DNA from: Fluviicola sp.
GTDB lineage: Bacteria > Bacteroidota > Bacteroidia > Flavobacteriales_D > Crocinitomicaceae
Length of the DNA: 64,000 bases
Reading direction: 5' to 3'
Assembly: GCF_039596355.1 (NCBI RefSeq)
Contig: NZ_JBCNJW010000012.1
Coordinates: forward strand, 36,072 to 100,071
How positions within the stretch are numbered: position 1 is the first letter of the stretch; every line of letters begins with the position of its first letter. Under the pieces are notes generated by a model. It ran no database searches. It worked only from the letters and a program-made list of their open reading frames with translations, and was not told the origin of the DNA. Shown here one piece after another: positions 20,174 through 61,364 of this stretch. Made by a program: the position numbers and the translations under genes.

Positions 20174-22579
20174 ATGAATAGACACATCAAGAAAGTGGCC
20201 GTTTTGGGATCAGGAGTCATGGGATCCAGAATCGCCTGCCACTTTGCCAATGTAGGATGCGAAGTGTTATTGCTTGACATCCTGCCGAAAGAGCCCAACG
20301 ATGCTGAAAAAGCAAAAGGTCTGACACTGGAGAGTAAAGCTGTCAGAAACCGCATCGTCAACGAAGCATTGCAATTCGCTTTGACATCTGCACCTTCCCC
20401 GATCTACAGAAAATCATTCGCATCCCGGATCCAAACAGGGAATTTCGAAGACGACATGGCAAAAATTGCCAATGTAGACTGGATCATCGAAGTGGTAATC
20501 GAACGCCTCGACATCAAGCAGCAAGTGTTTGAACATGTGGAAAAATTCAGAAAACCGGGAACATTGATTTCATCCAACACGTCCGGGATTCCCATTCACC
20601 TGATGCTCGACGGCAGATCAGATGATTTCAAAAAACACTTTGCCGGAACCCATTTCTTCAATCCGCCAAGATACCTTCCTTTACTGGAAATCATCCCAAC
20701 AAACGAAACCGCTCCGGAAATCATCGATTTCTATATGTCTTTCGGCTCCAAAATTTTGGGTAAGAAAACGGTTTTGTGTAAAGACACTCCCGGATTCATC
20801 GGAAACCGTGTTGGTGTTTACTCCATGGGGAAAGTCATGGAATTAGCTCAGGATCTTGGTTTGACCATCGAAGAAGCGGATTTATTGACCGGAGCAATCC
20901 TGGAACGACCTAAAACCGGAACCTTCAAACTCTCCGATTTGGTAGGTTTGGATACCGCTTACAACGTTACGAAAGGTCTGCAGGCAAACCTGCCGAACGA
21001 CCAAATGGTCAAAGACATCAAAGATTCGAAAGTATTAAACTTCCTGATCGAACATAAATTCCTCGGAGATAAAACCAAAAAAGGATTCTATTACAAAGAG
21101 AAAGATGCATCCGGTGCAACCAACCGATTTGCATTAGACCTGGAAACGTTGGAATACCGTCCGATGCAGAGAGCCAAGCTTCCTGTAATCGAAATGGCGA
21201 AACAGGCTCCGGATTTAAAAACACGTTTGGGCATGTTGCTGCTGGACAAAACCAAAGCCGGCGACCTGTTAAGAAAACACTACGCGTCGTTATTTGCCTA
21301 TGTTTCTCAACGCGTTCCGGAAATTTCAGATGTGCTTTTCAGCATTGACGATGCCATTCGTTCGGGTTACGCCTGGACATATGGTCCGTTTGAAAACTGG
21401 GATTTGGTCGGAGTGAAAAAAGGAATCGAATTAGCGGAAAGCGAAGGTTACACCGTAGCCGATTGGGTCAAAGAACTCGTTGCTGCCGGGAACAATTCAT
21501 TCTACAAATCGGAAGGAGGTAAAAAGTACTTCTACGACATAGCTTCCAAATCATACAAAGTCATTCCGGGAACAGAAAACCTGGTAATTCTGGATGCTTT
21601 ACGTGAAACCAACAAAGTTTGGGGGAATTCAGACACCACACTGGTAGATTTGGGAGACGGAGTCCTGAACCTGGAATTCCACACCAAAATGAACACCATC
21701 GGTGGTGGGGTGATCGAAGGAATCAACAAAGCAATCGACCTGGCTGAAAAGGATTACAAAGGATTGGTTATTTCCAATACCGGCGGAAACTTCTCTGCCG
21801 GAGCAAACGTCGGAATGATCTTCATGATGGCTGCGGAACAGGATTACGATGAATTGAATTTCGCCGTGAAATCATTCCAGGACACGATGATGCGCATCCG
21901 CTATTCAAACATCCCGGTAATCGCGGCTCCACACAACATGGCACTTGGTGGAGGATGTGAATTATCTATGCACTCCGATAAAGTCGTTGCTCACGCAGAA
22001 TTGTACATGGGACTGGTTGAATTCGGTGTCGGATTGATCCCGGGCGGAGGCGGATCCAAGGAATTCGCAAAACGATTCTCAGACGAACTGAGAGACGGAG
22101 ACATCAAAATCAATCGTCTGCGCGAACGCTTCCTTTCCATCGGACAGGCAAAAGTTTCCACTTCTGCATATGAAGCCTTTGATTTAGGTTACCTGCGTCC
22201 CGGAACGGATGAGGTGGTCGTTTCAAGAGAATATCAATTGACACAGGCAAAAGCCGCAGCACTTGAATTGGCCGAAAAAGGCTACATCGCACCGAAGAGA
22301 GAGAAAAACATCACTGTTCTCGGTCAGGAAGGTCTCGGAATTATTTACGTTGGAGCAAACTCCATGAAATCCGGACACTACATGTCGGAACACGATCAGG
22401 TGATTTCCGAAAAACTCGGCTGGGTGATGTGTGGAGGTGATTTGAGTGAAAACACGGTTGTTTCGGAACAATACCTATTGGATTTGGAACGAAAAGCATT
22501 CGTGGAACTTTGTCAGCAACGCAAAACACTTGAGCGTTTGGAAAGTTTGGTGAAATCCGGGAAAATTTTGAGAAATTAA
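20174..22579 (+). CDS. fadN: 3-hydroxyacyl-CoA dehydrogenase / enoyl-CoA hydratase (FadN type)
   Basis: VAVLGSGVMG Rossmann motif, SNTSG, HFFNPPRYL, C-terminal crotonase domain (ALGGGCE, VGLIPGGGG). Confidence 0.92.
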   Translation: MNRHIKKVAVLGSGVMGSRIACHFANVGCEVLLLDILPKEPNDAEKAKGLTLESKAVRNRIVNEALQFALTSAPSPIYRKSFASRIQTGNFEDDMAKIANVDWIIEVVIERLDIKQQVFEHVEKFRKPGTLISSNTSGIPIHLMLDGRSDDFKKHFAGTHFFNPPRYLPLLEIIPTNETAPEIIDFYMSFGSKILGKKTVLCKDTPGFIGNRVGVYSMGKVMELAQDLGLTIEEADLLTGAILERPKTGTFKLSDLVGLDTAYNVTKGLQANLPNDQMVKDIKDSKVLNFLIEHKFLGDKTKKGFYYKEKDASGATNRFALDLETLEYRPMQRAKLPVIEMAKQAPDLKTRLGMLLLDKTKAGDLLRKHYASLFAYVSQRVPEISDVLFSIDDAIRSGYAWTYGPFENWDLVGVKKGIELAESEGYTVADWVKELVAAGNNSFYKSEGGKKYFYDIASKSYKVIPGTENLVILDALRETNKVWGNSDTTLVDLGDGVLNLEFHTKMNTIGGGVIEGINKAIDLAEKDYKGLVISNTGGNFSAGANVGMIFMMAAEQDYDELNFAVKSFQDTMMRIRYSNIPVIAAPHNMALGGGCELSMHSDKVVAHAELYMGLVEFGVGLIPGGGGSKEFAKRFSDELRDGDIKINRLRERFLSIGQAKVSTSAYEAFDLGYLRPGTDEVVVSREYQLTQAKAAALELAEKGYIAPKREKNITVLGQEGLGIIYVGANSMKSGHYMSEHDQVISEKLGWVMCGGDLSENTVVSEQYLLDLERKAFVELCQQRKTLERLESLVKSGKILRN

Positions 22580-22617
22580 GACAATAGACTTCAGACGAGG
22601 GACAATAGACAATATTC
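22577..22617 (+). repeat. Period-7 degenerate array (nnnAGAC), left flank of the four-helix-bundle gene
   Basis: taagac aatagac ttcagac gagggac aatagac. Confidence 0.75.
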
Positions 22618-22624
22618 AACAATA

Positions 22625-22975
22625 ATGGCTAAACATAATTTTCGAAAGTTGGAAATCTGGATTATATCCATGGACGTAGTAAAAGATGTCTATGCTGTAA
22701 TTTCTGATTTTCCTGTGGACGAACGTTACGGACTAAAGTCTCAAATGTCAAGATGTGCTATTTCCGTACCTTCAAATATTGCAGAGGGAAGCAGCCGGAG
22801 TTCAATCAAAGAGTTTTCACACTTTCTGGACATCGCACTGGGATCAAGTTTTGAATTGGAAACACAGTTGATAATTGCTCATGACCTGTTTCAGGCAGAG
22901 ACTCATACAATTATTGAAAAGTGTCAAAATTTACAACGTATGATAATCGGATTCAAACAGAAAATAAATAATTAA
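22625..22975 (+). CDS. Four helix bundle protein (23S rRNA IVP / TIGR02436 family)
   Basis: HNFRKLEIW...FPVDERYGLKSQMSRCAISVPSNIAEGSSR...FLDIALGSSFELETQL. Confidence 0.93.
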   Translation: MAKHNFRKLEIWIISMDVVKDVYAVISDFPVDERYGLKSQMSRCAISVPSNIAEGSSRSSIKEFSHFLDIALGSSFELETQLIIAHDLFQAETHTIIEKCQNLQRMIIGFKQKINN

Positions 22976-23013
22976 AGAACGGTAGACGAAAGCAAAAGCA
23001 TTTGATAACAAAG

Positions 23014-23048
23014 GTCTTTTGTCTTGCGTCTTAAGTCTCAAATCTTTA
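23014..23048 (-). repeat. Period-7 degenerate array (GTCTnnn), right flank, inverted relative to the left array
   Basis: gtctttt gtcttgc gtcttaa gtctcaa atcttta. Confidence 0.75.
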
Positions 23049-23053
23049 AAACA

Positions 23054-24232
23054 ATGAACAAAGCATATATCGTAGCGGGATTCCGCTCAGCAGTAGGAAA
23101 ATCAGGGAAAGGAGGATTGCGCTTCTTTCGGCCTGATGATTTGGCGGCACGCGTCATTGAACATCTCGTAGCAAGCGTACCGCAAGTAGAAAAAACACGT
23201 ATCGATGATGTGATCGTGGGAAATGCAACTCCGGAAGCAGAACAAGGATTGAACGTCGGACGTTTGATCTCTTTGATGGGATTACACACAGACAAAGTTC
23301 CAGGAATGACCGTAAACCGTTACTGTTCATCCGGATTGGAAACCATCGCCATTGCACAAGCGAAAATCGAAGCCGGAATGGCCGATTGCATCATTGCAGG
23401 TGGAGTTGAATCCATGTCCGTAATGGCAATGGGAGGATGGAGAATTGTTCCGAACCCGAAAGTGGGAAAAGAAAATCCGACCTGGTACTGGGGAATGGGA
23501 TTGACCGCAGAAGCTGTTGCATCACAGTTCAACGTGAGCCGTGAAGACCAGGATTTATTTGCGATGCATTCCCAGGAAAAAGCACTGAGAGCGTTGGCTG
23601 AAGGAAAATTCAAAGACGAAATCGTTCCGATCGAAGTAGAACACATTTTCCTGGACGAAAACGAAAAAAGACAGGTTAAAAATTACATCGTCGAAACAGA
23701 TGAAGGCCCGCGCGCTTCGAGCCTGGAAGGACTGGCAAAACTAAGACCGGTATTCGATGCCCAGGGAAGTGTTACTGCCGGAAATTCCTCTCAAACTTCA
23801 GACGGAGCGGCATTCGTGATGGTGATGTCTGAAAAAATGATGAAGGAACTGAACATCGAACCGATTGCACGCCTGCACAGCTATGCTGTAGTTGGTGTAG
23901 AACCACGCATCATGGGAATCGGGCCGGTGGAAGCTATTCCGAAAGCATTGAAACAAGCAGGGTTGAGCCTGAACGATATCAGCTTATTCGAATTGAACGA
24001 AGCATTTGCTTCTCAATCGTTAGCCGTGATTCGCGAATTAGGCTTGAATCAGGATATCGTCAATGTGAACGGTGGAGCCATTGCCCTAGGACACCCACTG
24101 GGTTGTACCGGAGCGAAACTAACGGTTCAGCTCTTGAGCGAACTTCGCAGAAGAAAAGAAAAATACGGTGTCGTGACCATGTGCGTCGGAACCGGACAAG
24201 GAGCTGCTGGAGTGATCGAATTGCTGAAATAA
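23054..24232 (+). CDS. fadA: Acetyl-CoA C-acyltransferase (thiolase)
   Basis: NRYCSSGL active Cys, NEAFA, GHPLGCTG, TMCVGTGQG. Confidence 0.95.
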   Translation: MNKAYIVAGFRSAVGKSGKGGLRFFRPDDLAARVIEHLVASVPQVEKTRIDDVIVGNATPEAEQGLNVGRLISLMGLHTDKVPGMTVNRYCSSGLETIAIAQAKIEAGMADCIIAGGVESMSVMAMGGWRIVPNPKVGKENPTWYWGMGLTAEAVASQFNVSREDQDLFAMHSQEKALRALAEGKFKDEIVPIEVEHIFLDENEKRQVKNYIVETDEGPRASSLEGLAKLRPVFDAQGSVTAGNSSQTSDGAAFVMVMSEKMMKELNIEPIARLHSYAVVGVEPRIMGIGPVEAIPKALKQAGLSLNDISLFELNEAFASQSLAVIRELGLNQDIVNVNGGAIALGHPLGCTGAKLTVQLLSELRRRKEKYGVVTMCVGTGQGAAGVIELLK

Positions 24233-37737: not shown

Positions 37738-37807
37738 GACTCAGATACGAGCGGGAACCTGCTTTGGATTAAAAGCGGGAAGAAAACGCCTGAAAAGGCA
37801 AAAAGCG

Positions 37808-37825
37808 ACTTCGACTCCGCTCAGT
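37808..37825 (-). repeat. REP-like palindrome, single layer (ACTGAGCGGAGTCGAAGT)
   Basis: Both arms recur at 52992-53057 and 61281-61322. Confidence 0.75.
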
Positions 37826-37858
37826 CTGCTTTTGCCTTTTCAATTTTCACTTTTGAAT

Positions 37859-38635
37859 TTATTTGACTTTCTCTTTCATAAACTTGTTGAAGTCAATCCA
37901 GCTTTTTTTATCTGCTGCCGCGTTATAGGCAATCGGCATGGAGAATTTCTTTCCCGTTTCTGTTGAGTGTGGATTGGTAAAAGCATGGGTTGCATCTGCA
38001 TAATTGATGAACGTGAAATCGGCTCCGGCATCCGCCATCTGTTTTTTAAATTCGACGATGTCTGTTTCCGGAACAAATGAATCTGCCGCACCGTTACACA
38101 CCAATACCGCTGCTTTCAGCTTAGTCTTGTCGACCGGAATTCCTGCCAAACCACCGTGAAAACTTACCACTGCATCTACCGGAGCTCCCATTTTGGCAGC
38201 GTTCAAAACTACCGAACCTCCAAAACAGTACCCGATTGCAATGACTTTGGAAGCATCCACTCCCGGTATTGTCATAGCTTTGTTATAACCGGCCATGAAA
38301 CGGTCGTAGGAAAATTGCGGATCAGTGTAAAAAGGTGTTGCCAATGCTTGCGCATCTTTCGGATTGGCAGCTATTTTGCCCGTTCCGTACATATCAATGC
38401 AAAAAGCAATGTTTCCTTCTTTGGCGATCTGAAGCGCACGTGTTTTAACATAATCGTTCAATCCCCACCATTCGTGAACGATCAGAACCGTCTTTGTTTT
38501 TTTACTCAGTTTTTCCGGCTTTGCATAAAATCCGGTGAATGATTGTCCGTTAATGGAATACTGTACGGAATCCAGTTTTTGTGAGAATACACTGTTTGCG
38601 CTGAAAAGCAATGCTAAAAGAATGAGTCGCTTCAT
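37859..38635 (-). CDS. Dienelactone hydrolase family protein (exported)
   Basis: HEWWGLN, GYCFGG, HAFTNP; -7 element at 38665-38672 supports start 38635. Confidence 0.92.
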   Translation of the reverse strand: MKRLILLALLFSANSVFSQKLDSVQYSINGQSFTGFYAKPEKLSKKTKTVLIVHEWWGLNDYVKTRALQIAKEGNIAFCIDMYGTGKIAANPKDAQALATPFYTDPQFSYDRFMAGYNKAMTIPGVDASKVIAIGYCFGGSVVLNAAKMGAPVDAVVSFHGGLAGIPVDKTKLKAAVLVCNGAADSFVPETDIVEFKKQMADAGADFTFINYADATHAFTNPHSTETGKKFSMPIAYNAAADKKSWIDFNKFMKEKVK

Positions 38636-38696: not shown

Positions 38697-38764
38697 GAAT
38701 TACGAATTACGAATTACGAATTACGAATTACGAATTACGAATTACGAATTACGAATTACGAATT
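38697..38764 (+). repeat. Perfect heptamer tandem repeat (GAATTAC)x9 plus partial copy
   Basis: Read directly; a degenerate inverted partner lies at 38784-38815. Confidence 0.97.
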
Positions 38765-52803: not shown

Positions 52804-52991
52804 CTCAGAATCTCCTCTTTTCAATTCTCCATTAAAAAATAGAGCGCCTTGATCTAAATATTGGCAACAAGTTTCCTGAATTGTATCAAACCAATTTGAA
52901 GAATTAATAATCAGCTACTTATCCCAATACCCGGCGTACCTCACGGACCCGACATGACATCCGGAATTAAAAAACCTTTTTACCTTCTTAA

Positions 52992-53057
52992 TACTGAGCG
53001 ACCTGTAGTGAGCACTTGCAATGAGCTTGTCGAATTGTGTCGAACTAAGTCGAAGTA
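52992..53057 (+). repeat. Triple-nested REP-like palindrome
   Basis: tACTGAGCG[acctgtAGTGAGC[acttgcAATGAGCTTGTCGAATT]gtGTCGAACTa]AGTCGAAGTa. Confidence 0.75.
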
Positions 53058-53110
53058 TCAATTTTCCATTCTCAATTCTCAATTGTAAAATACGGAGTGG
53101 AATCGAACTC

Positions 53111-58149: not shown

Positions 58150-58164
58150 AGATTTGTTAGAGGG

Positions 58165-58315
58165 AAGACTTTTTTAGAGACAGGAGGCAAGACTTTTGGA
58201 GACAAAACTGATAGAGTCAAGACATGAAGACTAAAGGAGTCAGGAAGTAAGACCGTTCAGAATGAATCTTAGTCTTGTCTCCTGACTCTCATTATCTTGA
58301 TTATCTCTAAAGTCT
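58165..58315. repeat. Inverted AGAC/GTCT degenerate arrays without an ORF
   Basis: GAGACAGGAGGCAAGAC (58177), GAGTCAAGAC (58214) and GAGTCAGGAAGTAAGAC (58237) oppose TTAGTCTTGTCTCCTGACTC (58269-58288). Confidence 0.7.
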
Positions 58316-60411: not shown

Positions 60412-61260
60412 ATGGGAATTATCACTCTGACTACAGATATGGGATTAACCGACTACTATGTGGCGGTTTTAAAGGGAAATTTGTTCAAACTGGCTCCCGG
60501 AGCGTCTGTGGTGGATATTACTCATCAGGTAAAACCATTCGATATTGCGGATGCCAGTTATTACATCCAGGCTTCTTTCCGTGAGTTCCCCGAAGGGACG
60601 GTTCACATCATCGGTGTGGACAGCGAACCCATCATCAATTCCAGTAACGGTGCTTATCCGAGCATCCTCCTGTTCAAGGGACATTACTTCATTTCGAACG
60701 ATAACGGCATTTTTGCGTTGATTCTGCGGGGTGAAAGTCCGGAAGGATTCTGGCGGATCGACAACGTACTTTCCAATCCGAAAGGCCTGCGCTTTCCGGT
60801 GAAAAATATTTTTGTGCCGACCGCAGCACGCATTGTTGCCGGAGAACCGCTCGACACCATCGGGTCGGAAGAAACCAGCTGGCGCGTGGCGCACACGGTC
60901 AATGCCGTGATCGAGGAAAACCTCATCAAGGGATCTATTGTCCACATCGATCATTACGGTAACGCGATCACGAACATTACAAAGGAAATCTTTGCGCGTT
61001 TCGATGATGCTCCTTTCACGATCCTGTTCCGCAAACGGGAATATTACATTGATGAGATTTCCAGCACCTACAACGACGTCGCTCCGGGTGAACGACTGGC
61101 TTTTTTCAATGACAACAACCTGCTGGAAATCGCGATCAACAAAGGTGCAACCGGAAACGGAGGCGGAGCAGATTCCCTTTTCGGGCTGCGGGTTCACGAC
61201 CTCGTACGGGTTGAATTTACACCGCGTGGTTCTGCCAAAACCATTGACTCCCTTTTTTAA
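60412..61260 (+). CDS. SAM hydroxide adenosyltransferase (DUF62, chlorinase/fluorinase family)
   Basis: ITLTTDMG, VDITH, GTVHIIGVD, DNGIF, IDHYGNAITNI, LEIAIN. Confidence 0.9.
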   Translation: MGIITLTTDMGLTDYYVAVLKGNLFKLAPGASVVDITHQVKPFDIADASYYIQASFREFPEGTVHIIGVDSEPIINSSNGAYPSILLFKGHYFISNDNGIFALILRGESPEGFWRIDNVLSNPKGLRFPVKNIFVPTAARIVAGEPLDTIGSEETSWRVAHTVNAVIEENLIKGSIVHIDHYGNAITNITKEIFARFDDAPFTILFRKREYYIDEISSTYNDVAPGERLAFFNDNNLLEIAINKGATGNGGGADSLFGLRVHDLVRVEFTPRGSAKTIDSLF

Positions 61261-61352
61261 ATTGAGAATTGAAAAAGAACACTGAGCGGCCTGTGGTGGA
61301 CTTACCGAACTAAGTCGAAGTACTTTTCAATTTTGACTTTTAACTTTTGAAT
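61259..61352. repeat. Two-layer nested REP between inverted AATTGAG/AATTTTG heptamer-like arrays
   Basis: aattgag aattgaa...ACTGAGCG[gcctgtggtggacttacCGAACTa]AGTCGAAGTa...ttttc aattttg actttt aacttttg. Confidence 0.7.
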
Positions 61353-61364
61353 TATATTAAACAT

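Follow-up and report, generated by a model that had tools for sequence, protein, structure and literature searches.

The question raised by the locus described here is why a fad operon of Fluviicola sp. should carry, between its fadN and thiolase genes, a small gene of the IVP family that is enclosed by two tandem arrays of heptanucleotides, one of them being the reverse complement of the other. The locus lies in a stretch of 64,000 nucleotides of contig NZ_JBCNJW010000012.1 (positions 36,072 to 100,071 of the forward strand); the whole stretch is referred to as the window, and positions are counted from its first letter. We lean towards the explanation that the open reading frame (ORF) and its two arrays make up a discrete, horizontally exchanged "IVP cassette", which would correspond, in a protein operon, to the S23p-bearing intervening sequences (IVS) of 23S rRNA. 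The parts of the locus are as follows.

20174..22579, plus strand: fadN-type 3-hydroxyacyl-CoA dehydrogenase/enoyl-CoA hydratase gene (Pfam 3HCDH_N, 3HCDH and ECH_1; ORF list)
22579..22613, plus strand: upstream array, (AGACnnn)x5 (sequence; Tandem Repeats Finder, TRF)
22625..22975, plus strand: IVP gene, encoding a four-helix-bundle protein of 116 aa (PF05635, TIGR02436)
22976..23000, plus strand: degenerate sense half array (AGAA..AGAC..AAGC..AAGC), pairing locally with the downstream array (sequence, fold)
23014..23048, plus strand: downstream array, (GTCTnnn)x5, its core being the reverse complement of the upstream core (sequence)
23054..24232, plus strand: thiolase gene (Pfam Thiolase_N, Thiolase_C)
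22972..23049, plus strand: local 3' hairpin composed of the half array, a loop and the downstream array (-19.7 kcal/mol, z -3.0)
22578..23046, plus strand: predicted long-range stem, 22578-22610 with 23014-23046 (minimum free energy and centroid fold)

The arrangement described in an earlier note on this DNA, i.e. an IVP-family ORF placed between inverted heptamer arrays and between fadN and thiolase, was confirmed by the sequence, by a pattern scan and by the PF05635 and TIGR02436 profiles. The upstream array, purine-rich on the coding strand, takes the last A of the fadN stop codon (TAA, 22577-22579) as its first base, overlapping the gene by this one nucleotide, and consists of the units AGACAAT, AGACTTC, AGACGAG, GGACAAT and AGACAAT, among which there is a single GGAC core. 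The units of the downstream array are GTCTTTT, GTCTTGC, GTCTTAA, GTCTCAA and ATCTTTA, with ATCT as the final core, and the array stops 5 nt short of the thiolase ATG (23054). The 7-nt units are intergenic and arranged head to tail (TRF: period 7, 5.1 copies). The IVP ORF extends from the ATG at 22625 to the TAA at 22973-22975. Only 11 nt separate the upstream array from this ATG, so that a promoter cannot fit there, and the best explanation of the window copy is a promoter-less cassette, filling the whole fadN-thiolase spacer and co-transcribed with the operon. Within the 64 kb the pattern AGACN3AGACN3AGAC, with no more than one mismatch, was found exclusively in the two arrays, on opposite strands (6 matches against 0.09 expected; 0/100 shuffles). 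As to the periodicity in general, 76 scanning windows of the 64 kb had at least 20/28 self-matches at period 7, while there were 4 at period 9 and 0 at periods 5, 6 and 8.

The arrays accompany the gene. The IVP orthologues L001-L007, L009 and L010 (59-97% identity) are every one located between fadN and thiolase, and all of them possess AGAC repeats upstream and GTCT repeats downstream, the 3-base spacers of which differ freely. The length of the arrays varies among the orthologues, freshly duplicated units being visible, and the sense half array is better kept in L005, L010, L090 and L093 than in the window. A 63%-identical IVP homologue, L008, resides between the genes of a PIF1-type helicase and GAPDH and is flanked by (AGACnnn)5 and (GTCTnnn)4-5. 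Since the same arrays surround the gene outside the fad operon, they belong to the gene and not to this operon; together with the family-wide architecture described below, the flanks of L008 bear out the earlier proposal that the ORF and the arrays travel as a unit.

The generality of the arrangement was assessed with a scan of one genome per species, which gave 80 IVP loci from Bacteroidota, Clostridia, Fibrobacteres, Acidobacteriota, Planctomycetes, Gastranaerophilales, Ignavibacteria, Xanthomonas and others, including three candidate-phyla-radiation groups. By eye, most loci have a short-period array before the ATG and its reverse complement after the stop codon, the motif being lineage-specific (TTAGAAG, GTGAATA, TAGTGGG, AGAATAT, GAGTATT, AGCTnTG, GGTTTCn, GCTGTTG). 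Arrays with variable spacers are missed by a direct-repeat tool and by strict autocorrelation; a core-chain counter, which follows a 4-nt core in phase, revealed at least three in-phase units on both sides, with reverse-complement cores, at 75 of 106 IVP loci (71%) versus 11 of 183 random segments (6%). Inverted arrays are thus general among the TIGR02436 genes whose flanks the earlier note had proposed to inspect. Period-7 scores of at least 10 were obtained for 30 upstream and 35 downstream flanks of 84 loci, the respective numbers for periods 5, 6, 8, 9 and 10 being 0-5, and at 49 of the 84 loci the upstream flank matched its own reverse-complemented downstream flank above the 95th percentile of permuted pairs. 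A score of at least 7 was reached by 58% of IVP flanks, versus 21% of other intergenic regions of the same loci. Of 44 distinct IVP loci on phage contigs, 34 were accompanied by a period-7 array on one side or both.

The repeat motif and its period cluster on the IVP protein tree, where the AGAC, AGAATAT, GAGTATT and AGCTnnG flavours each form their own cluster and two clades use 8-nt units. Pairs of the same flavour from different genomic contexts are 6.8 identity points above the pairs without shared repeated 5-mers (permutation p 0.0005). One of the period-8 clades is found at the fadN-thiolase junction and the other upstream of a gene whose product, judged by eye, has an RluD-like start. 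Both neighbours are co-oriented with the IVP gene at 72 of 79 loci (91%), and the median gaps between it and the neighbours are as short as 55 and 46 nt, which means that the arrays take up almost the entire spacer. On the coding strand, purines predominate in the upstream array in 70 of 89 cases and pyrimidines in the downstream array, likewise in 70/89, across motif flavours; the upstream array ends at most 15 nt from the ATG at 51 of the 91 cellular loci, where, as in the window, a promoter would find no space.

The junction at which the window copy resides is not constant among relatives. A metagenome scan with the thiolase as a query retrieved 80 related loci, 25 of them with an IVP gene upstream, and the comparison of junctions that the earlier note had suggested revealed period-7 and period-8 cassettes as well as ORF-less, deleted-ORF and empty states (thiolase identities are given relative to the window).

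L090, thiolase 94% identical: AGAC period-7 cassette with an 80%-identical IVP
L091, thiolase 93%: period-8 cassette (TAAGAYnn; units TTAGGAYn / TAAGAYnT) with a 53%-identical IVP
L092, thiolase 93%: no cassette; a small, unrelated hairpin in a spacer of 53 nt
L094 and L095, thiolase 87%: ORF-less AGACx3-GTCTx4 hairpin
L098, thiolase 86%: ORF-less AGACx5-GTCTx5-6 hairpin (-35.5 kcal/mol, z -6.5)
Several other loci, thiolase 81-84%: fadN stop, 2 nt, thiolase ATG
L142, thiolase 80%: both arrays around a remnant that retains only 12 codons from the start and ~20 from the end of the ORF

Over the final 60 residues, the fadN products of L090 and L092 match that of the window exactly and that of L091 differs at one position; the flanking DNA is ~87% identical. 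The ORF-less AGAC/GTCT hairpins of L094/L095/L098 have z of -3.6 and -6.5, and the period-8 cassette of L091, too, possesses a partial sense copy after its stop codon. The orthologous junction is therefore polymorphic for the presence and absence of the cassette (L090, L091, L092, L094, L098, L142), and its states would fit an element that is inserted as a unit, exchanged, decaying and lost rather than a fixed feature of the operon. That the ORF and the arrays constitute one unit, exchanged and lost as such, we consider highly probable. In many of the 80 genomes ORF-less inverted heptamer hairpins occur in neighbouring same-strand spacers as well, and in L032, L042, L046 and L051 such hairpins have the same motif as the local IVP cassette. 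The earlier view of ORF-less arrays as empty or relic sites finds support at the junction of the relatives (L094, L095, L098, L142) but not among the hairpins of the window, most of which have other motifs. Vertical conservation of the gene at this site, named in the same note as an argument against a mobile unit, is observed within the clade of orthologues with 59-97% identical IVP, whereas among wider relatives the junction turns over.

Other inserts were also met at this place. The junctions of L097 and L164 contain unrelated C/G-rich palindromic repeats, CCCCCTTTGAAGGGGG and CCCTCAAGGGAGG, and the hairpin of L092 is smaller and of a similar type; small structured inserts of different kinds seem to be generally accepted at the fadN-thiolase junction. 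In the L118-L155 group, which comprises many marine relatives, an ORF of ~224 aa is located upstream of thiolase instead of fadN, and the spacer has a conserved palindrome, ATTATGCATGCATAAT, which is probably an operator.

The protein itself is an unambiguous member of its family, with 111.2 bits to PF05635 (E 3.6e-32; cut-off 33.8) and 108.2 bits to TIGR02436 (E 2.4e-31; cut-off 24); as a query it matched 5,485 clusters, which marks PF05635 as a large family. Its AlphaFold model, calculated as a monomer (pLDDT 95), consists of four helices and is similar to XCC0516 (2GSC; TM-score 0.90; phmmer E 1e-19) and BT_0352 (2RLD; TM-score 0.78), the crystal entries of which have five chains each; XCC0516 is known to be a homopentameric toroid (PMC4990558). 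The helix-2 motif R-x3-S-x3-N-x2-E, described for the IVP family (PMC3936711), is present, and its residues R43, S47, N51 and E54 are invariant among 28 homologues, as are the polar residues H4, N5, E33 and Q40. The ratio of nonsynonymous to synonymous divergence (dN/dS) of the IVP gene among orthologues is 0.03-0.08, similar to that of thiolase, with dS saturated (>1), which indicates that the protein is kept by selection. In the same orthologues the 4-nt AGAC cores persist despite the saturation of synonymous sites, and their conservation is thus above the neutral expectation. Between the window and L090 the dS of the IVP gene is ~3 (saturated) and that of the adjacent thiolase 0.8; this gap, noisy with 116 codons, may point to an exchange of even "orthologous" cassettes. 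The models of defence systems in PADLOC gave 0 families at E <=0.01 for the IVP, and an identical protein was absent from the gene-position index.

As to the RNA, the fold of 22570-23060 pairs 22578-22610 with 23014-23046 in both the minimum free energy and the centroid structures. The stem comprises helices of 4+6+5+7+4 bp (~26 bp); the outermost 4-bp helix is set off by a 4x4 internal loop, and the 6-, 5-, 7- and 4-bp helices that follow are parted by single mismatches approximately every 7 nt. As a prediction, then, the suggestion of the earlier note that the arrays pair and loop the ORF out stands, and such a stem would bring the fadN stop beside the thiolase start. The duplex formed by the two arms has an energy of -30.3 kcal/mol in the window and of -27.9 kcal/mol on average for 19 AGAC-type loci. 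The same note had supposed that the partial AGAC copy lets the downstream side fold locally, and the local 3' hairpin indeed has the energy and z listed above and is retained in the five closest orthologues; the consensus structure of six orthologues (-17.5 kcal/mol) consists of mostly invariant pairs, with covariation at 1 pair only. Contigs from three probable RNA runs span the fadN-array-IVP and the IVP-array-thiolase junctions; being of low depth, they are uninformative on RNA ends, and as they cross both junctions they are consistent with read-through transcription.

Comparison with known systems helps to interpret these features. In Coxiella, the S23p ORF lies in the loop of the 23S rRNA IVS, the 28-bp stem of which is cleaved by RNase III; S23p-bearing IVS are regarded as selfish or once-mobile elements, acquired horizontally and then maintained vertically (PMC4990558). 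This background, as well as the RNA binding by the related protein Avd (10.1101/2023.10.23.563531), had been adduced in the earlier note and holds. Like the 23S IVS of Leptospira, Coxiella, Xanthomonas and Brucella, the cassette encloses in its loop a gene of this protein family, oriented like the host transcript, and has complementary termini forming a predicted stem (that of the IVS being ~28 bp). In contrast to them, it is situated in the spacer of a protein-coding operon, between fadN and thiolase, and not in rRNA helix 9, 25 or 45, so that of the IVS attributes it shares the sense ORF and, as a prediction, the complementary termini, but not the location. Its ends are built of tandem 7-nt (8-nt) units with a 4-nt core and free spacers, whereas those of IVS are a near-perfect unique inverted repeat; moreover, the cassette ORF is under selection, and the Coxiella one is decaying. 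Rfam gave no match above noise at the site, and none of 18 other IVP loci was in rRNA.

The explanation which we lean towards is, accordingly, an IVS-like element borne by a messenger operon. The purine-rich upstream and pyrimidine-rich downstream arrays would be the ends of the cassette. They would zip, in any 7-nt register, into a periodic imperfect stem of ~26 bp within a read-through transcript or single-stranded DNA, looping the ORF out and bringing the fadN stop and the thiolase start near each other again, while the nearer half array would give the alternative local hairpin. The IVP pentamer, whose stoichiometry is deduced from the family, may read the periodic structure (stem or array) of the cassette that encodes it, and over evolutionary time the cassette would be inserted, replaced, decayed to an ORF-less hairpin, or lost. 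Pairing of the arms in vivo, RNase III-type processing of the RNA, binding of the arrays by the protein and the way in which the cassette moves are inferred. If a pentamer reads the arrays, the core and the period should be kept while the spacers drift, and the motif and period should co-diverge with the protein; the operon-borne model would also explain why the arrays are strand-polarised and why the cassettes run in the sense of the transcribed units that contain them. The pairing in mRNA combined with the reading of arrays by the protein is, in our opinion, a plausible mechanism, which we put forward tentatively.

There are observations that weigh against this explanation. The arms of different loci pair nearly as well as those of one and the same locus (cross-locus mean -26.9 kcal/mol; own versus cross p 0.087), which suggests that the stability is provided by the cores and the A/U-rich spacers and that any 7-nt register works, and no covariation of spacers between the arms was found (unit-permutation p 0.16-1.0). 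Compensatory covariation is therefore not claimed, in-register spacer complementarity being non-significant and the own-versus-cross difference weak; the pairing is backed by the cores and by thermodynamics, not by compensatory change. The fold of the whole region is unexceptional (z -1.2), and the local 3' hairpin and the long-range stem are mutually exclusive, as they compete for the downstream array. Within its clade, the window copy appears, from the orthologues compared, to be vertically inherited at the fadN-thiolase site. No target-site duplication was seen at the borders when filled, ORF-less and empty junctions were compared, nor were excision joints found in DNA contigs, which drop rare variants. 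The arrays comprise mostly 3-5 units, with a range of 2-11, and this range rules out "five repeats = pentamer" as a strict rule. Besides, period-7 arrays are present in ~12-20% of other intergenic regions, those of the window included, i.e. an IVP gene in cis is not required for every array.

Of the same kind are the observations concerning transcription. The upstream array is at least 30 nt away from the ATG at 29 of the 91 cellular loci and in 20 of the 34 phage-contig cassettes, and in 7 phage-contig cassettes the gap between the array and the ATG contains the Bacteroidetes -7 motif TAnnTTTG; with a promoter motif inside the arrays, a transcript started by the cassette itself would not include the upstream arm. 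In the L220 locus (1100-1610, Nostoc edaphicum plasmid pNe_5) an IVP gene between (GGAGTAG/GGAGTGG)n and (CCCTACT)5 separates nrdB and nrdA, the genes of the ribonucleotide reductase beta and alpha subunits, and is antisense to both. The gapped and promoter-bearing cassettes, together with this antisense insertion, imply that a role in RNA only is not the whole story, and for the gapped cassettes with the promoter motif a function confined to mRNA is, judging from their layout, unlikely. The arrays bracket whatever the cassette carries, and the phage-contig cassettes with the internal TAnnTTTG motif would represent a self-transcribed subtype. By eye, this motif was seen on the phage contigs L174, L183, L184, L190, L202, L205 and L210; an automated scan, applied to cassettes with at least 3 upstream units only, likewise counted seven but produced a partly overlapping list, which adds L172 and L177 and in which L190, L202 and L210 are not printed. 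In further phage-contig cassettes TGnTAnnnT-like, extended -10-looking elements were noticed by eye.

The main rival explanation is a DNA-level role of the arrays as cassette ends. The cassette would then be a mobile DNA element, its arrays serving as multi-site terminal inverted repeats (cf. the several transposase-binding sites at the ends of Tn7 and Mu) and the IVP pentamer acting as the end-binding, possibly catalytic, part of a novel minimal system of transposition or recombination, and the RNA pairing would be incidental. It would accommodate the arrays located outside the gap upstream of the ORF with the promoter-like motif in the 7 phage-contig cassettes, the antisense insertion in the nrd operon, the gain, loss and replacement observed at one site and the co-divergence of the protein and the motif, while the invariant H4, N5, E33, Q40, R43, S47, N51 and E54 could make up an active or binding site. 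However, the compared junctions have no target-site duplication, no nuclease or recombinase motif is recognised in the fold, its nearest structures being nucleic-acid-binding or uncharacterised pentamers, and a mechanism operating on double-stranded DNA has no need of the strand polarity of arrays and the 91% co-orientation; excision joints were not seen either, although contig data are insensitive to them. We judge this explanation fairly unlikely. Miniature inverted-repeat transposable elements (MITEs) and integron cassettes offer partial parallels, since they are also compact, transposase-less, bounded by inverted repeats and accompanied by ORF-less derivatives, and many IVP copies, like integron cassettes, are promoter-less, transcribed by the host and provided with an imperfect 3' hairpin. 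Unlike them, the IVP cassette shows no target-site duplication, no partner transposase or integrase was identified for it, and its ends are tandem short-period arrays.

A further possibility is a domesticated regulator of the operon. TRAP and HutP are homo-oligomeric rings, the former reading (G/U)AG with 2-3 nt spacers and the latter UAG with 4 nt spacers (a 7-nt period); the spacers in their sites are unconstrained, and their action involves alternative RNA structures. The IVP cassette may likewise work by means of a ring that reads short cores at a fixed spacing, but the folds of TRAP and HutP are unrelated to that of IVP, and these proteins are host regulators, whose sites are not matched by an inverted array and do not come and go together with the protein gene as one cassette. 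A regulator of this type would bind the arrays near start codons and tune the translation or stability of the fad message, being a host module and not a selfish one. The retention of the gene between fadN and thiolase within the clade, purifying selection matching that of thiolase, arrays abutting the start codons of IVP and thiolase, and the two mutually exclusive structures are all compatible with such a function, and heptamer repeats upstream of start codons were proposed to be sites of post-transcriptional regulators (PMC4679880). On the other hand, the same package occurs in unrelated operons, on phage contigs and in cas operons (PMC3936711), relatives with a 93%-identical thiolase have no cassette or a different one, and ORF-less and internally deleted forms persist. 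We consider a host regulator distinctly unlikely.

The relationship to Avd brings in one more explanation, namely, a retroelement-linked cassette which would spread via an RNA intermediate with the help of an Avd-like protein and a reverse transcriptase whose gene lies elsewhere. Avd forms a pentamer of positive charge, which binds an imperfect RNA stem-loop of 11 bp, with flipped-out bases in the inter-protomer crevices and the participation of all five protomers (10.1101/2023.10.23.563531). The IVP model shares with it the four-helix-bundle fold (4DWL; TM-score 0.70-0.75, Foldseek probability 1.00, but E 0.17-0.24 and 14% identity). Apart from this homology to a protein that is obligatory for reverse transcription in diversity-generating retroelements and binds a stem-loop by the template, one could refer to the co-orientation with host transcription at 72 of 79 loci and to the family members in 16S and 23S insertions; an RNA intermediate would explain the sense orientation in transcribed units, rRNA included. 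But the adjacent genes (in the window fadN, thiolase and that of an AI-2E-family transporter; in the orthologous loci a MarR-family gene upstream of fadN) include no reverse transcriptase, this screen being restricted to neighbours, and no pair of template and variable repeats was seen. In contrast to Avd, then, the IVP gene is adjoined by neither a reverse transcriptase nor template/variable repeats, the identity is ~14%, and its putative ligand is a long periodic array and not an 11-bp stem-loop. We regard a retroelement link as improbable.

Finally, heptanucleotide tandem repeats are known from other bacteria (cyanobacterial short tandemly repeated repetitive, or STRR, sequences, GGGAATC in Xanthomonas, TAACTGA in Beggiatoaceae), where their function is not settled (PMC4679880, PMC4692102). 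Like these repeats, the cassette arrays are intergenic, often placed at start or stop codons and variable in length, and both are abundant in IVP-rich lineages; unlike the cassette arrays, the published repeats are treated as free-standing direct repeats, and text searches of PMC4679880 and PMC4692102 met no mention of S23p, four-helix-bundle or intervening-sequence genes. It is hardly credible that the arrays are generic microsatellites with no specific tie to the gene, for even though heptanucleotides outnumber the other long simple repeats of many prokaryotes and slippage was proposed as their source (PMC4679880, PMC4692102), the window has other heptamer arrays without an IVP gene and the arrays of orthologues vary in length, with duplicated units visible, slippage yields no reverse-complement array across a gene, cannot keep a 4-nt core beyond the lifetime of synonymous sites, cannot make the motif and period track the protein tree, and leaves the enrichment of 71% versus 6% unexplained.

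The association of IVP genes with inverted short-period arrays is apparently undescribed. IVP genes were noted within cas operons (PMC3936711) and in rRNA insertions of candidate phyla (10.1101/2024.02.27.582315), in both cases with no mention of flanking arrays, and inverted heptamer arrays around IVP genes were not met with in our searches of the literature, the coverage of which is incomplete. For PF05635, which has solved structures and lacks a function, the arrays visible in cis are a concrete candidate ligand. If true, the cassette explanation would account for the small IVP genes inside unrelated operons (fad, nrd, cas, hemE, rluD), extend the 30-year-old puzzle of the rRNA "intervening sequence" to messenger operons, offer a possible reason why heptanucleotide repeats are over-represented in bacteria and suggest an origin of the retroelement protein Avd. 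In annotation, the arrays could flag the borders of cassettes and ORF-less relics. A much broader generalisation may be imagined, in which PF05635 pentamers are specific readers, perhaps even propagators, of short-period tandem arrays and form with them widespread protein-guided mobile cassettes that target hairpin loops and operon spacers, the ORF-less decay products of which make up much of the heptanucleotide excess, and Avd is a recruited member of the family; we offer it as speculation, rather unlikely to hold.

Several other heptamer elements of the window deserve mention. Three intergenic elements (37791-37863, 52980-53096 and 61256-61358) have a common loop, CTGAGCG...GTCGAAGT, one of them being reversed, and adjoining period-7 arrays nTTTTnA / TnAAAAn; for two of the elements a hairpin fold is obtained (z -3.1 and -1.6). 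They look like a separate family similar to repetitive extragenic palindromic (REP) sequences, with heptamer arms, and, having other motifs and the shared loop sequence, were not counted as cassette relics. In the spacer of two convergent genes (58150-58313), seven AGAC at irregular distances of 9-21 nt on the left are followed by GTCT/ATCT on the right; the region folds as a long hairpin (-43.9 kcal/mol, z -2.3) and could be a degraded relic of the AGAC type or a bidirectional terminator. Between two minus-strand genes, a perfect (GAATTAC)x9.7 array, with no inverted partner nearby, occupies 38697-38764, ~60 nt upstream of the start of an ORF of 278 aa.

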